A stretch of 9,968 nucleotides of DNA, from assembly GCA_964468895.1 (NCBI GenBank), contig CAYXWT010000001.1:40855-50822 (forward strand), read 5' to 3'. The DNA comes from an uncultured archaeon (lineage in GTDB: Archaea > Iainarchaeota > Iainarchaeia > Iainarchaeales > CSSED10-239). The notes beneath the pieces were generated by a model. That model saw only the letters and a list, made by a program, of their open reading frames with translations, was not told where the DNA came from and did no database searches. Each line of letters starts with the position of its first letter. Position 1 is the first letter of the stretch. Of this stretch, positions 1 to 9,968 are shown piece by piece. Position numbers and translations under genes: made by a program.

Positions 1-1320
1 TTAATAGCTAGAAGAAATAAAAAATGTTTTATTACAGGTAATACACCATTTTCAAATATAACTTTAGATTTAACAATACCTTCAACTTTTAAAGATAAAC
101 CAGTTATAATTGGAGGTAAAGTTCAAGATAAAATATATGGTGATTTTACTAAAGAAGTAGAATTATTTAATAAATGTTTATTAGAAGTTTATGAAGATGG
201 TGATGCAAATAAAGCTGTTTTTACTTTTCCTATACCAACAATAAATATTACTAAAGATTTTAATTGGGATAGTATACTAGCAGATAAAGTTTTAGATATA
301 ACTTCTAAATATGGTACACCTTCTTTTTGTAATTATGTAAATTCAGATCTTAATCCAGAAGATGCAAGAAGTATGTGTTGTAGATTAAGATTAGATAATA
401 GAGAACTACATAAAAGAGGTGGTGGTTTATTTGGTTCAAGCCCACTTACTGGTTCTATAGGTGTAGTTACTATTAATATGGGTCAATTAGGTTATCTTTC
501 TAAAGATGAAAATGATTTTTTAGAAAGATTAAGTCACTTGATGGATATAGCTAAAAATTCTTTAGAAATTAAAAGAAAAATTATTGAAAAATATACTGAT
601 GATGGATTATATCCTTATTCTAAATATAATTTAAGAAATATTAAAAAAAGATTTGGTACTTATTGGCAAAATCATTTTTCTACTATAGGTTTATTAGGTA
701 TGAATGAAGCTTTATTGAATTTATTTGGTTATGATTTAACTTCTAAAGATGGAGAAAAGTTTACTTTAAAAACCTTAGATTTTATGAGAGATAAAATGTT
801 AAAATATCAAGAAGAAACAGGTAATTTGTTTAATTTAGAAGCAACTCCTGCAGAAAGTACTACTTATAAATTTGCAAGATATGATAAAGAACATTATCCA
901 GATATAATTGTTGCTAACGAAAAAGAATATAGAGATGGTGCAGAACCATATTATACAAATTCAAGTCAAATGCCAGTTGGTTTTAGTGATGATGTGTTTG
1001 AAGCATTAGATATTCAAGATGATATTCAATGTAAATATACAGGTGGTACTATACTTCACATTTTTATTGGAGAAAAGAAACCAGATAAATTATCTATAAA
1101 ATCATTAATTCAAAAAGTTTGTAAAAATTATAAATTACCTTATTTTACAATTAGTCCTACTTTTAGCATTTGTCCTAAACATGGTTATATATTTGGAGAA
1201 CATAACTATTGTCCAAAATGTGATGATGAAATAAATTATAAAAAAGAACTTGAAAAAATAGAATTAGAAGAAAAAAATAAAATTATAAAAAATAAAAAAG
1301 AGGTTGATGATTTTGAATAG
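1..1320 (+). CDS. nrdD: Anaerobic (class III) ribonucleoside-triphosphate reductase NrdD, catalytic body. The 5' end is cut by the window edge. The ORF stops (TAG 1318-1320) before the glycyl-radical motif.
   Basis: Frame 1 has no stop from base 1. My translation is LIARRNKKCFITGNTPFSNITLDL...AVFTFPIPTINITKDFNWD...NPEDARSMCCRLRLD, so Met373 is internal. NrdD hallmarks present: SMCCRLRLD (373-399, thiyl-radical Cys region), GGGLFG, NLEATPAES, YYTNSSQ, and a C-terminal Zn-ribbon CPKH(x11)CPKC (1171-1221). The expected C-terminal RVxGY glycyl-radical motif is missing from this frame. Confidence 0.9.
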   Translation, partial: LIARRNKKCFITGNTPFSNITLDLTIPSTFKDKPVIIGGKVQDKIYGDFTKEVELFNKCLLEVYEDGDANKAVFTFPIPTINITKDFNWDSILADKVLDITSKYGTPSFCNYVNSDLNPEDARSMCCRLRLDNRELHKRGGGLFGSSPLTGSIGVVTINMGQLGYLSKDENDFLERLSHLMDIAKNSLEIKRKIIEKYTDDGLYPYSKYNLRNIKKRFGTYWQNHFSTIGLLGMNEALLNLFGYDLTSKDGEKFTLKTLDFMRDKMLKYQEETGNLFNLEATPAESTTYKFARYDKEHYPDIIVANEKEYRDGAEPYYTNSSQMPVGFSDDVFEALDIQDDIQCKYTGGTILHIFIGEKKPDKLSIKSLIQKVCKNYKLPYFTISPTFSICPKHGYIFGEHNYCPKCDDEINYKKELEKIELEEKNKIIKNKKEVDDFE

Positions 1321-2142: not shown

Positions 2143-2158
2143 TTAGTATGTGGTATTT

Positions 2159-4261
2159 ATGACTATTAAAGTTAAAGATAAAGATAATATATTAACAGAT
2201 TTTTCTAAAGAAAAGATTACAATTCATCTATTTGAACTTATGTGTTATATAGGTGATCCTAATTTAAAATTGGCTGAAAAATTGGCTTCTACAATAAACG
2301 ATAATTTATATTCCGAAAATATTTCTGAAATTACAACTAATGATTTAGAATTAATTATTAAAGAAATTTTAAAAGAAAAGCATTCTGAATTATTACAAGC
2401 ATTTATTTTAAGAAAAGATGATTCTAGTAATAAATTAAATGTAGATTTAGATTTAAAATATAAATTATTACAAAATATGTTTAATTTAGATTCTTCAGAT
2501 AAAGTTGATAATTATTTGTACCTTATTAGAAATAAATTAATAACTAAAGATCCTAATAATAAAAATTTGTATACTTTGATATTTAAATATATTAATGAAG
2601 GTTTATTTTATCCTTCTACTAATATTTTAGTAAATCTTAACTCTAATTCTAATAATTTATTTAGCTCTTATAATTTAAAAATACAAGATACTCTTGAAAG
2701 TATATTTTCAAAATTAAGTATGTCAGCAACTATTGAAAAAAAAACAGTTAATACTTCTATAAATTTATCTGATATAAGATCTAAAAAAGAAATTGTAAAC
2801 TCAATTAATAAAAATGCTTGCGGACCTATAAAAGTAATAGATTTATTTATATCTGCACATAATTTAATAAATTATAATTCTACAATGAATTCTAATAATT
2901 TATTTTATATAAATATAGAACATCCAGATATATTTGATTTTATTAAGAAAAGTGGAGAGTCTACTAATTTTAATTTTAGTATATTGATAACTAATAGATT
3001 TATGAAAAATTTATTAGCACAAAAAGTATATAGTTTCTCACAAAATAGTAATACTAATAATAATACTGTACAAAAAAAGATGAATTTAGATAACGTTGAA
3101 GAAAAGAATTGTGATTCAAATTATATTGTAGATCCAAATGCAATAATCGATTTTTTAGCAACAAATATTTATAATTCTAATAACATAAATATTATATTTA
3201 TAGATAAACTTAAAGAAAAAAGTTGTTTTTTAAATTATAAAAATACAGAAATATCTCCAATAGGTAATCAGCTCATTTTTGAAAACAATGGTTTTGTTAG
3301 TGGTGTAATAGATCTTTCTAAATTTGTAAATAAAATGGGATCTATAAGATTATTTGATTGGAATAAATTTAAAAAAGTAATTATGGATTCTATTAAATTT
3401 TTAGATAATATCATCGATATATCTTCGTTTATTGATGATAATTTTGAAAATAATATTAAAAATACAAGAAATATTTATTTGTCAATTACAGGTTTTGCAA
3501 CTCTTTTAAGTAAATTAAATATACCATATAATAGTTCTGATGCTCTTTTATTTGGAGAAAAGATTTCTGAATTTATAAGTTATTATTCTAAATATAAATC
3601 TATGTTACTTTCAAAACAAAAAGGTCCATTTTTAAAATACATTAAAAGCAAGTATGATTCTATGAATTTTTCTTTTGATACTTATCCAATTCAAAAAACT
3701 TTATTTTCTGATCAGAAACTTGCAAAAAAGTTATTAGCAAATAAAGCTATTGTTGATTGGGATGAATTAAAAAATAATATTAAAAAGTATGGTATTAGAA
3801 ATGCAACAACATATAGTGTTATTTTTTCAGATTTATTTAGTGTTGCTAATGATTCTACTAATTCAATTAATCCTTTAGAAAAATTAAAATATAGTTATGA
3901 TATAAGTAAAACTGAATTCACAAAAATAAATTCTGATTTATTATTAAATTTAAATGATGTTGATAAAAATATTACTACTGAAGAATTAGAAGAAAAGCTA
4001 AGTCCTAATCTTAAAAAATTATTTGTAACTTATAAAGATATAAAAGCAGAGTTTTATTTAAAGTTACAACATTCTTTTGAAAAATATTGTGATGGTATTT
4101 GTAATATAAATACATATGTTACAAAGGATAATTCTATTAGTGATATTAAAAATCTTATTATAAAAAGTTATGAATATAATAACGTAGGATTTTTTCCAAA
4201 AACAAAAGTAAACTCAACTTTATTTTCAACAAATAATCCTGAATTCAGAAAAAGCTTATAA
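2159..4261 (+). CDS. Class II (NrdJ-like) ribonucleotide reductase homologue with an N-terminal ATP-cone-like domain. Catalytic residues appear substituted, so it is a putative pseudoenzyme.
   Basis: The track ORF starts at GTG 2150, but in-frame ATG 2159 (MTIKVKDKDN...) is the more likely start. The N-terminal ~85 aa follow the ATP-cone pattern (IKVxDKDNxxxxFSKEKI...ITTNDLELIIKEILKE...LQAFILRK). The rest follows the RNR large-subunit barrel consensus block by block:
- FYPSTNILVN, LFSSYNLKIQDTLESIF, SINLSDIRSKK, ACGPIKVIDLF
- NIEHPDIFDFIKK, NFSILITNRFM, EISPIGNQLIFENNGFVSGVIDLSKFV
- FDWNKFKKVIMDSIKFLDNIID, TRNIYLSITGFATLL, QKGPF
- GIRNATTYSV, ICNINTYVTKDNSISDIKNLI. Confidence 0.75.
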   Translation: MTIKVKDKDNILTDFSKEKITIHLFELMCYIGDPNLKLAEKLASTINDNLYSENISEITTNDLELIIKEILKEKHSELLQAFILRKDDSSNKLNVDLDLKYKLLQNMFNLDSSDKVDNYLYLIRNKLITKDPNNKNLYTLIFKYINEGLFYPSTNILVNLNSNSNNLFSSYNLKIQDTLESIFSKLSMSATIEKKTVNTSINLSDIRSKKEIVNSINKNACGPIKVIDLFISAHNLINYNSTMNSNNLFYINIEHPDIFDFIKKSGESTNFNFSILITNRFMKNLLAQKVYSFSQNSNTNNNTVQKKMNLDNVEEKNCDSNYIVDPNAIIDFLATNIYNSNNINIIFIDKLKEKSCFLNYKNTEISPIGNQLIFENNGFVSGVIDLSKFVNKMGSIRLFDWNKFKKVIMDSIKFLDNIIDISSFIDDNFENNIKNTRNIYLSITGFATLLSKLNIPYNSSDALLFGEKISEFISYYSKYKSMLLSKQKGPFLKYIKSKYDSMNFSFDTYPIQKTLFSDQKLAKKLLANKAIVDWDELKNNIKKYGIRNATTYSVIFSDLFSVANDSTNSINPLEKLKYSYDISKTEFTKINSDLLLNLNDVDKNITTEELEEKLSPNLKKLFVTYKDIKAEFYLKLQHSFEKYCDGICNINTYVTKDNSISDIKNLIIKSYEYNNVGFFPKTKVNSTLFSTNNPEFRKSL

Positions 4262-9293: not shown

Positions 9294-9968
9294 TTATTTA
9301 TTTTGTGGTTTTAATAAATTATATTTATCTAAATATATTTCAGTTTTTAAAATTTCAATAAAAGGAATTACAAATAATACAAAAAATATGTTAGATATAA
9401 TTGTACCTCCAAAAACTCCAAATATTACATCTATTACATATGTAATTAGAACTAATATAAAGCAACTAATAAATAAATATATTAAGTATAAATAATTTCT
9501 TTTAATATAATTAAAATTAATTACTAGTGCATGAATTGCTTTTTCTTTTTCTAAAACAATTATTTGTGGTATGAACCAAAATAATATACTTATTATAAAT
9601 AATATCAAATTTGTGAAGATATTATCTAATAATCCAATTTCATATAAAAAAGAACTAAGTAATACTATAATTAAGTAATAAATAATATTAAATTGAAATA
9701 ATTCTATAAAGCTTTTTCTAATGTCAGAAATAGGATATTTTTCAAAAGCGTAAGAATCTTCTACCCTGTATATTAATATAACTTGTAATAATGTAAATAT
9801 TAAAATAAAAGTAGTAATTGCAATTAATGTTATTATTATACTTATAGGATTTTCTAAAAATAAATTGTAAGAAATATCTAAACTACCACCAGTTATTTTA
9901 AATAAAGGATTTATAGCAAATAAAGTAAATATAAATAAAACACTTGTTAATAATACAAATTTTATATT
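9294..9968 (-). CDS. Polytopic integral membrane protein of unknown function; the 5' end runs off the window
   Basis: The track calls 9294-9608 from a TTG codon (complement of 9606-9608). I translated the same minus-strand frame codon by codon up to 9968 and found no stop: NYKFVLLTSVLFIFTLFAINPLFKITGGSLDISYNLFLENPISIIITLIAITTFILIFTLLQVILIYRVEDSYAFEKYPISDIRKSFIELFQFNIIYYLIIVLLSSFLYEIGLLDNIFTNL, continuing into ILFIISILFW... It has at least 5-6 hydrophobic helices. A 225-codon open frame in DNA this AT-rich is unlikely by chance. I recognise no family motif. Confidence 0.6.
   Translation of the reverse strand, partial: NIKFVLLTSVLFIFTLFAINPLFKITGGSLDISYNLFLENPISIIITLIAITTFILIFTLLQVILIYRVEDSYAFEKYPISDIRKSFIELFQFNIIYYLIIVLLSSFLYEIGLLDNIFTNLILFIISILFWFIPQIIVLEKEKAIHALVINFNYIKRNYLYLIYLFISCFILVLITYVIDVIFGVFGGTIISNIFFVLFVIPFIEILKTEIYLDKYNLLKPQNK

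Follow-up and report, generated by a model that had tools for sequence, protein, structure and literature searches.

The 9,968-nucleotide stretch of DNA analysed here (the window, at its full length) comes from an uncultured archaeon of the Iainarchaeota and carries, at positions 2150 to 4261 of its forward strand, a gene whose product is here called pseudo-NrdJ. As far as its sequence can tell, pseudo-NrdJ is shown to be a catalytically dead paralogue of the class II ribonucleotide reductase (RNR) alpha subunit, encoded by the last gene of a string that runs nrdD, glycyl-radical peptide, nrdG and pseudo-NrdJ. The list of open reading frames (ORFs), Pfam, phmmer, an AlphaFold2 (AF2) model and Foldseek all enter into this identification. 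The anchors of the allosteric effector site are kept at three of three positions, whereas the catalytic and substrate side chains are kept at none of six. A first reading of the letters alone, hereafter the sequence-only reading, had described the gene as a full-length class II homologue stripped of its catalytic residues, and its individual claims are taken up below with the results that bear on them.

Fold and lost catalytic residues of pseudo-NrdJ

Pfam, a sequence search of the PDB, NCBIfam and Foldseek agree that pseudo-NrdJ is a full-length RNR alpha homologue whose best match, by sequence and by structure, is class II, as the sequence-only reading had held. The Pfam family Ribonuc_red_lgC (PF02867) covers residues 174-676 with E=1e-59, and phmmer against the PDB places Thermotoga maritima NrdJ (1xje) on top with E=4e-30 and human R1 at E=4e-15. 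The best NCBIfam model is TIGR02504 NrdJ_Z with 223.3 bits, under its cut-off of 399.95 bits; NrdE_NrdA reaches 147 bits, and every matching RNR model (19/19) scores the protein under its own cut-off. The AF2 model, for which 24 sequences were aligned, reaches a predicted local distance difference test (pLDDT) score of 83.7 and a predicted template modelling (pTM) score of 0.81, and Foldseek matches it in the PDB to T. maritima NrdJ first (1xje, E=8e-34, template modelling scores 0.66/0.74) and then to class I alpha subunits. By Pfam, AF2 and Foldseek, the ten-stranded alpha/beta barrel of RNRs is present. A further NCBIfam model, NF005401 (PRK06948, 'ribonucleotide reductase-like protein'), gives 66.6 bits against a cut-off of 906 bits, and pseudo-NrdJ is not a member; NF005401 may itself be another non-canonical RNR-like group.

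The residues on which catalysis depends were compared in a phmmer register that has no gaps near the motifs and that is reproduced by MAFFT alignments with two sets of canonical NrdJ proteins, one of 6 and one of 55. Correspondences are given from the T. maritima residue to the residue of the window protein. In T. maritima NrdJ (1XJE), the substrate is anchored by Asn320, Glu324, Ser91 and Arg207 (Zimanyi et al. 2016, Table 4, PMC4728125). In the finger loop of pseudo-NrdJ, SPIGN replaces NPCGE at 3254 to 3268, so that Asn320 becomes Ser369, Cys322 becomes Ile371 and Glu324 becomes Asn373 (these replacement positions follow the 703-residue numbering). The redox residue Cys333 is replaced by Phe382 at 3293 to 3295; both of these replacements had been placed at exactly these coordinates by the sequence-only reading. 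The partner redox cysteine, Cys134, had been read as a Tyr at 2669 to 2671. The loss of the cysteine stands, but the residue was misassigned: the ungapped phmmer alignment and MAFFT both put Ser173 (2666 to 2668) in its place, and Tyr174 is the next codon. The finger loop, Phe382 and Ser173 were each verified at the codon level.

The same positions were followed across the clade of 18 members to which pseudo-NrdJ belongs. The Cys134 column is 100% Cys in the 55 canonical NrdJ proteins, against 67% Ser among members of the dead clade (MAFFT). Ser is invariant at the Asn320 position and Phe occupies the Cys333 position in 94% of members, while the thiyl position, Cys322, varies between Ile, Val and Lys against 100% Cys in the canonical set; the Glu324 position is also variable. 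Cysteine is absent from the three catalytic positions in every clade member, in profile as well as in multiple alignments, and this check could have overturned the manual register of the sequence-only reading.

Other motifs have been lost along with these side chains. TVNTS replaces GGGVG at 2744 to 2758, and only a remnant of loop 2, INYNSTMNSNN, is left at 2867 to 2899, where the conserved QG..RRGA is gone and with it Arg207, the residue for the substrate phosphate. In the alignment, KQGSRRRGALM of loop 2 becomes NYNSTMNSNNL, which leaves Met/Asn at the Arg207 position, and columns that are 98% Arg and 98% Gly in canonical enzymes hold Asn, Thr or Ser in the clade; the earlier claim that the GGGxG and RRGA loops had been replaced is therefore upheld. 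The substrate-phosphate loop APTG reads IFSD at 3821 to 3832. Its canonical columns are Ala 98%, Pro 100%, Thr 98% and Gly 100%, against Ile 89%, Phe 94%, Ser 94% and Asp 100% in the clade. The C-terminal SKTIN block is replaced by NINTY in the window protein. About 70% of NrdJ proteins have, at the C-terminus, a cysteine-rich domain or a pair of cysteines that serves re-reduction (PMC5704485). Pseudo-NrdJ has no such domain, and the ~25 residues beyond its barrel form a cysteine-free tail that ends in FRKSL.

In a comparison of the 55 canonical NrdJ proteins with the 18 clade members, 138 columns show at least 80% conservation among the enzymes; the clade retains 42 of them and has lost 96. 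The lost columns include the three cysteines, Asn320, Glu324, GGGxG, the RRGA of loop 2, APTG and SKT.N. In their place, new residues have become invariant or nearly so: Ser366 for Asn, Phe379 for Cys, Asp385 for Asn, Tyr440 and Ser442 for Gly, Phe556-Ser557-Asp558 for Pro-Thr-Gly and Asn564 for Ala. Several of these are bulkier than the residues they replace, and the former active-site cavity appears to have been remodelled or filled and then fixed in that state.

These losses support the view, already put forward in the sequence-only reading, that thiyl-radical nucleotide reduction would be impossible for pseudo-NrdJ, because none of the three cysteine positions holds a cysteine across the family and because the alignment places neither Asn nor Glu at the ribose-binding positions in any family member. 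Retention of the barrel and of the finger-loop architecture might suggest that the protein has remained a reductase, or is a radical enzyme of another kind, working with unconventional residues or an unconventional cofactor. However, the three cysteines, the Asn/Glu pair, the substrate-phosphate loop and the loop 2 Arg are all lost, the radical position drifts among Ile, Val and Lys, and the protein falls under all NCBIfam RNR cut-offs, which together make such an enzyme extremely improbable.

By its sequence, pseudo-NrdJ is accordingly outside the functional NrdJ enzymes in its thiyl cysteine, redox pair, substrate anchors, equivalog score and C-terminal redox domain. It shares with T. maritima NrdJ (1XJE, 3O0O) the fold, the domain order, the effector anchors and the motifs HPD, FLD, R..L..G and RN, and the GxQP context of its finger loop is class II-like. 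In contrast to that enzyme, it lacks the catalytic cysteines, Asn320, Glu324, Arg207, GGGxG, APTG, SKTxN and the C-terminal cysteine-rich domain, and its gene sits in a class III operon. T. maritima NrdJ is a dimeric, adenosylcobalamin-dependent enzyme, and adenosylcobalamin binding has no simple sequence motif.

The retained effector site and a candidate role

The specificity site of class II enzymes, where allosteric effectors bind, has fared differently from the active site. In 1XJE, the effector is held by Asp141, which contacts the 3'-OH, and by Arg171 and Lys158, which contact the phosphates (Table 4, PMC4728125). The corresponding residues of pseudo-NrdJ, found between 2687 and 2779 on the forward strand, are Asp180 (2687-2689), Lys197 (2738-2740) and Arg210 (2777-2779), equivalent to D177, K194 and R207 in 700-residue numbering. 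None of the three varies among 17 clade members, and their codons were checked. The lost GGGxG motif, now TVNTS, sits between these retained anchors. Loop 1, which also lies between the anchors, is strongly conserved, as is the CGP with which helix alphaB opens, and helix alphaA has four invariant positions. Across the 17 members, 98 columns are invariant and conservation is spread along the whole protein, including segments specific to the clade (IGEPNLxLAEKL, GPFLKFIKSKY, IQKTLFS and LRNNIKKYGLRN).

Since the three effector anchors are invariant and loop 1 and parts of the dimer helices are conserved, dimerisation and binding of a nucleoside or deoxynucleoside triphosphate, (d)NTP, are the functions most likely to have been retained. 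We therefore propose, with moderate confidence, that pseudo-NrdJ may be a non-catalytic, dimeric (d)NTP-binding regulator or scaffold partner of the class III system. On this view, pseudo-NrdJ is predicted to dimerise through the alphaA and alphaB helices and to bind (d)NTP at the old specificity site; in its nucleotide-bound form it would regulate or scaffold the class III reductase with which it is presumably co-expressed, and it is this reductase, rather than pseudo-NrdJ, that would make the dNTPs of the cell. The sequence-only reading had left a broad list of non-catalytic roles, and the kept effector site narrows that list somewhat towards a putative nucleotide-binding role.

Several points weigh against the proposal. 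The kept Asp, Lys and Arg could be structural instead, and loop 2, which contacts the effector base, has been remodelled, while the ATP-cone is degenerate. In addition, NrdD has its own ATP-cone in most genomes, so that an extra sensor is not obviously needed. Finally, the wider neighbourhood (integrase, TFIIE, CDC48, topoisomerase and Lrp genes) is syntenic as a whole in this narrow lineage, and the adjacency of pseudo-NrdJ to class III genes is for that reason only weak evidence of functional coupling.

The N-terminal ATP-cone-like domain, recognised by Pfam and by motif, spans residues 7-90 (2168 to 2419). In the window protein, the ATP-cone model (PF03477) reaches 21.8 bits, under the gathering cut-off of 25.8 bits, and in ten orthologues the score ranges from no match to 35.9 bits, with 5/10 above 25.8. 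The nucleotide-binding pattern of the domain is K-R-(D/N)-G...E...K; where KRDG is expected, the window protein has DKDN and the main subclade of orthologues HKNG..E..K; the cone also carries the clade-specific IG(E/D)PNLxLAEKL. A specific kinship with the NrdD cone of the same genome was considered, based on a shared xPN/DLxLAE/D, and was rejected: BLAST gives 25-45 bits to NrdD and NrdJ cones alike. Between functional NrdJ and NrdD cones, most scores are 40-72 bits. The pseudo-NrdJ cone, being more divergent from them than they are from one another, thus appears simply degenerate and without special affinity to either. NrdD lacks an ATP-cone in L003 (5425-7191), L007 (3779-5461) and L016 (3452-5101), and the cone is present in other sublineages. 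The pseudo-NrdJ cone is weak or absent in L003 and L007 but is also weak in P0007, where NrdD has a cone, and a correlation between loss of the NrdD cone and a weak pseudo-NrdJ cone is not clear from these sequences.

Reading frame, selection and distribution

The pseudo-NrdJ frame is long and undisturbed. The protein has 703 residues if it starts at GTG 2150 and 700 if it starts at ATG 2159, and it ends with the stop codon at 4259-4261. The GTG is the likely start, because the resulting N-terminus, MVFMTI, fits the orthologue N-termini M[VAS]FVxTI and because it lies 7 nt past the nrdG stop. In the other five frames of the region, the longest open stretches are 19-88 codons; the window ORF list has no ORF of at least 60 residues antisense to the gene, and Rfam and tRNA scans of the window gave no matches.

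The window is archaeal-looking, with a G+C content of ~18-29%, and pseudo-NrdJ has the lowest values, 18-21%, below those of its neighbours. Pseudo-NrdJ is also the fastest-evolving gene of the neighbourhood (41-51% identity against 57-83%), and in the subclade of the window it carries a low-complexity insertion. These features could be expected of a pseudogene in decay, or of a relic without function whose frame has stayed open by chance. Against this reading, the probability of 703 stop-free codons at the gene's own base composition is ~4e-34, and the frame is intact in every orthologous locus recovered. Likewise, a relic would account neither for the invariant columns nor for the new invariant residues that have appeared where old ones were lost. 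Given the intact orthologues and the low ratios of nonsynonymous to synonymous substitution rates (dN/dS) described next, the pseudogene reading is rejected, and we attach almost no probability to it.

Selection was measured as dN/dS by the Nei-Gojobori method on codon alignments. For L002 and L013, the closest informative pair (pseudo-NrdJ dN 0.057, dS 0.81), dN/dS is 0.070 for pseudo-NrdJ, 0.105 for nrdG, 0.033 for nrdD and 0.048 for cdc48. The 25 least-diverged pairs with unsaturated dS, mostly from the main subclade, give 0.07-0.18 for pseudo-NrdJ, which nrdG tracks; within the main subclade, pseudo-NrdJ stands at 0.07-0.15, close to the nrdG values for the respective genome pairs. Between the window and L007, the nearest sampled locus (dS ~0.8), the value rises to 0.53 for pseudo-NrdJ and 0.25 for nrdG. 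Values of 0.45-0.53 between the window and other subclades are not taken at face value, and closer pairs are preferred, because dS of the window pairs is ~0.8-1.1 in very AT-rich DNA. Still, pseudo-NrdJ of the window subclade evolves at about twice the rate of nrdG, with identities to L007 of 51% and 69%, respectively, and this weighs against the proposed (d)NTP-binding role. A closer relative, P0002 (70% identity), is known as a protein only, without its locus.

The codon comparisons thus support purifying selection on pseudo-NrdJ, as the sequence-only reading had argued for a non-catalytic role, although the constraint is weaker than on the neighbouring genes. Neither the frame disruptions nor the neutral dN/dS that would betray decay were found in the orthologues.

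The low-complexity insertion, NSNTNNNTVQKKMNLDNVEEKNCD, lies at 3044 to 3115 (alignment columns 430-500) and is rich in Asn. It is confined to the window's own subclade, varies in length and is much longer in P0002. The AF2 model has pLDDT below 50 over its residues 296-319, and expansions of this kind are typical of very AT-rich genomes.

The dead clade is small and narrowly distributed. A search of 5.8 billion proteins found 17 further members with 42-70% identity and 436-1020 bits, after which canonical NrdJ proteins follow at no more than 151 bits. An exhaustive HMMER search of 1.84 billion cluster representatives found four clade representatives with at least 437 bits, and the next hit, at 249 bits, is a canonical enzyme with NPCGE. 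There are at least 18 sequence clusters, all from one DPANN lineage and all with the same losses. The gene occurs in 10 GTDB species representatives, each an uncultured archaeal metagenome-assembled genome and one of them labelled Candidatus Iainarchaeum (DPANN, Iainarchaeota). On viral contigs (IMG/VR) no member of the clade was found, only canonical RNRs with 19-32% identity. A literature search for a dead NrdJ, for an RNR pseudoenzyme in archaea or DPANN and for RNR in Iainarchaeota, incomplete in its coverage, found no description; that no earlier report of a cellular, class II-derived dead RNR subunit was found is absence of evidence only.

The class III neighbourhood and known RNR relatives

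The genes that precede pseudo-NrdJ encode a class III RNR. The nrdD body (1 to 1320, forward strand; Pfam NRDD, E=2.5e-92) is open from base 1, its 5' end being cut off by the window edge, so that the 3' two-thirds are present; its C-terminus reads CPKHGYIFGEHNYCPKCDDE. It is followed by a 48-residue glycyl-radical loop ORF at 1307 to 1453, which matches positions 549-579 of 581 in the NCBIfam NrdD profile, and by nrdG, the radical S-adenosylmethionine (SAM) activase, at 1477 to 2142 (Pfam Radical_SAM and Fer4_12). In all cellular loci, the nrdD body, the small glycyl-radical ORF, nrdG and pseudo-NrdJ lie on the same strand in this order, with gaps of 4-20 nt between nrdG and pseudo-NrdJ. An orthologous full-length NrdD body scores 996 bits on NF006126 (cut-off 548) and nrdD has dN/dS of 0.03-0.07; judged by these values, the class III genes look fully functional. 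After pseudo-NrdJ in the window come, on the opposite strand, genes for CDC48, a type IA topoisomerase and an Lrp/AsnC regulator.

The NrdD of this lineage is split. The nrdD body stops right past the zinc ribbon, without a glycyl-radical loop. In the window, the loop motif VYSRVVGYVRPVRQWNYGKQAEFKDRK is encoded by the 48-residue ORF, which overlaps the nrdD end in a different frame. All cellular loci have the loop as an ORF of its own of 43-50 residues (..YSRVVGYVR..WNYGKQAEFKDRK.., YSRVVGYVRPVRQWNYGKQAEFKDRK), and the split is also seen, for example, in L002 (7095-9321), L003 (5425-7326), L004 (4161-7309) and L007 (3779-5617). The peptide ORF can lie in any of the three frames relative to nrdD, with spacings of -17 to +50 nt, and this variety cannot be due to a sequencing error or to one frameshift and marks a genuine two-gene arrangement.

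The peptide also occurs away from its enzyme. A protein search found 51 clusters of relatives, all of 44-65 residues, and orphan copies lie on apparent viruses or small mobile elements (L029 6001-6156, L031 1168-1317, L026 594-767, L033-L035 and L116 1783-1944), with no nrdD body, nrdG or pseudo-NrdJ near them. L029 carries portal/Mu-F-like and HK97-type capsid genes, and its peptide is 89% identical to that of the window. The 781-residue gene upstream of this peptide was considered as a divergent NrdD body or RNR barrel and was dismissed: it matches a portal/Mu-F-like protein and has no NrdD similarity. IMG/VR contains 336 stretches coding for relatives of the peptide (loci examined, L118-L197). 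Among the best 80 loci, 59 have orphan ORFs of at most 110 codons; an NrdD body lies within 4 kb of none of them, and nrdG is nearby in one. GrcA/YfiD is an autonomous glycyl-radical 'spare part' of pyruvate formate-lyase. By analogy, the orphan peptides may be a viral 'spare part' for an oxygen-damaged or split class III RNR.

Several features of these loci are side observations. Pseudo-NrdJ is followed in the main subclade by one or two small same-strand ORFs (92-94 residues, one with a weak 2TM match; L002 12074-12352, L004 10066-10636, L022 9922-10200); they are absent in the window, where CDC48 follows directly. The nrdD body has 994-1017 residues in L004 (4161-7145), L015 (2086-5139) and L022 (3963-6956) against the usual ~560-690, and the Pfam NRDD match there falls into two stretches, which points to an insertion of ~320 residues, possibly an intein. 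A hydrophobic 104-residue ORF adjoins the Lrp/AsnC gene of the window (9294-9608, reverse strand), and in L003 a called gene of the same length lies upstream of nrdD.

The split enzyme offers another way to explain pseudo-NrdJ, namely as a purely structural helper that binds no nucleotide and serves as a scaffold or chaperone for the NrdD body, the peptide and NrdG. Pseudo-NrdJ and split NrdD do occur together in every cellular locus examined, the former active-site cavity appears to have been refilled with conserved bulky residues, and IGEPNLxLAEKL, IQKTLFS, GPFLKFIKSKY and the C-terminal ..SL could be interaction surfaces. On the other hand, a structural role leaves the invariance of the three effector anchors unexplained, and viruses and mobile elements have the peptide without pseudo-NrdJ, so there is no need for it in cis. 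We consider this explanation unlikely.

The split peptide and the dead barrel could also form one mechanism. In class III enzymes, the glycyl-radical domain occupies a position that matches the adenosylcobalamin pocket of class II enzymes. The peptide might then dock in the former adenosylcobalamin pocket of pseudo-NrdJ, which would hold, protect or hand over an activated or spare peptide. The residue facing the peptide would be Ile, Val or Lys, with no hydrogen to donate, where the enzyme has its thiyl cysteine, and nucleotide binding at the retained dNTP site might act as a gate for the holding of the peptide. This idea is speculative and very improbable.

A further alternative holds that pseudo-NrdJ has been repurposed outside nucleotide reduction and that its position after nrdG is a leftover of an ancestral nrdDG-nrdJ cluster. 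Lineage-wide synteny leaves the adjacency with little weight, and new conserved motifs have arisen in the clade, as such a history would allow. There is also precedent: the human cytomegalovirus (HCMV) protein UL45, the murine cytomegalovirus (MCMV) protein M45 and the RNR of human herpesvirus 6B (HHV-6B) are inactive R1 homologues that have been retained and are functional (PMC5469499, PMC11772975). Nevertheless, no extra domain or extension is detectable in pseudo-NrdJ, which consists of just the RNR barrel and the cone, its close same-strand spacing behind nrdG suggests co-translation, and its effector anchors are kept. Repurposing of this kind is therefore rather improbable, and a (d)NTP-binding partner of the class III system is the role that we favour.

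The betaherpesvirus R1 proteins resemble pseudo-NrdJ in being RNR large-subunit homologues that have lost their activity and are kept under selection, a likeness of functional category and not of homologous family. Unlike pseudo-NrdJ, which is archaeal, class II-derived and encoded beside a class III RNR, they are viral, class I-derived and active in host innate-immune signalling, and the two origins are independent. Yeast Rnr4, an inactive RNR small-subunit (beta) paralogue, forms a heterodimer with the active Rnr2. It exemplifies the type of role proposed here, in which a dead RNR paralogue is a structural or assembly partner. However, pseudo-NrdJ is of the alpha type, and an active partner of class I or II was not seen, although the genomes were not searched for another RNR.

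RNR is among the most closely studied allosteric enzymes, and its family catalogues are built on the invariant radical cysteine. A cellular, full-length alpha subunit kept under strong constraint with the effector anchors but without the catalytic residues would be a natural split of the allosteric from the catalytic module. To our knowledge, archaea generally lack the bacterial repressor NrdR. If pseudo-NrdJ does bind dNTPs and act on the class III enzyme, it would represent a new type of archaeal RNR regulator, with a bearing on dNTP supply in very small symbiotic archaea. Taken with the split NrdD and with the peptides carried by viruses, pseudo-NrdJ suggests that the class III system of this lineage is unusual and modular.

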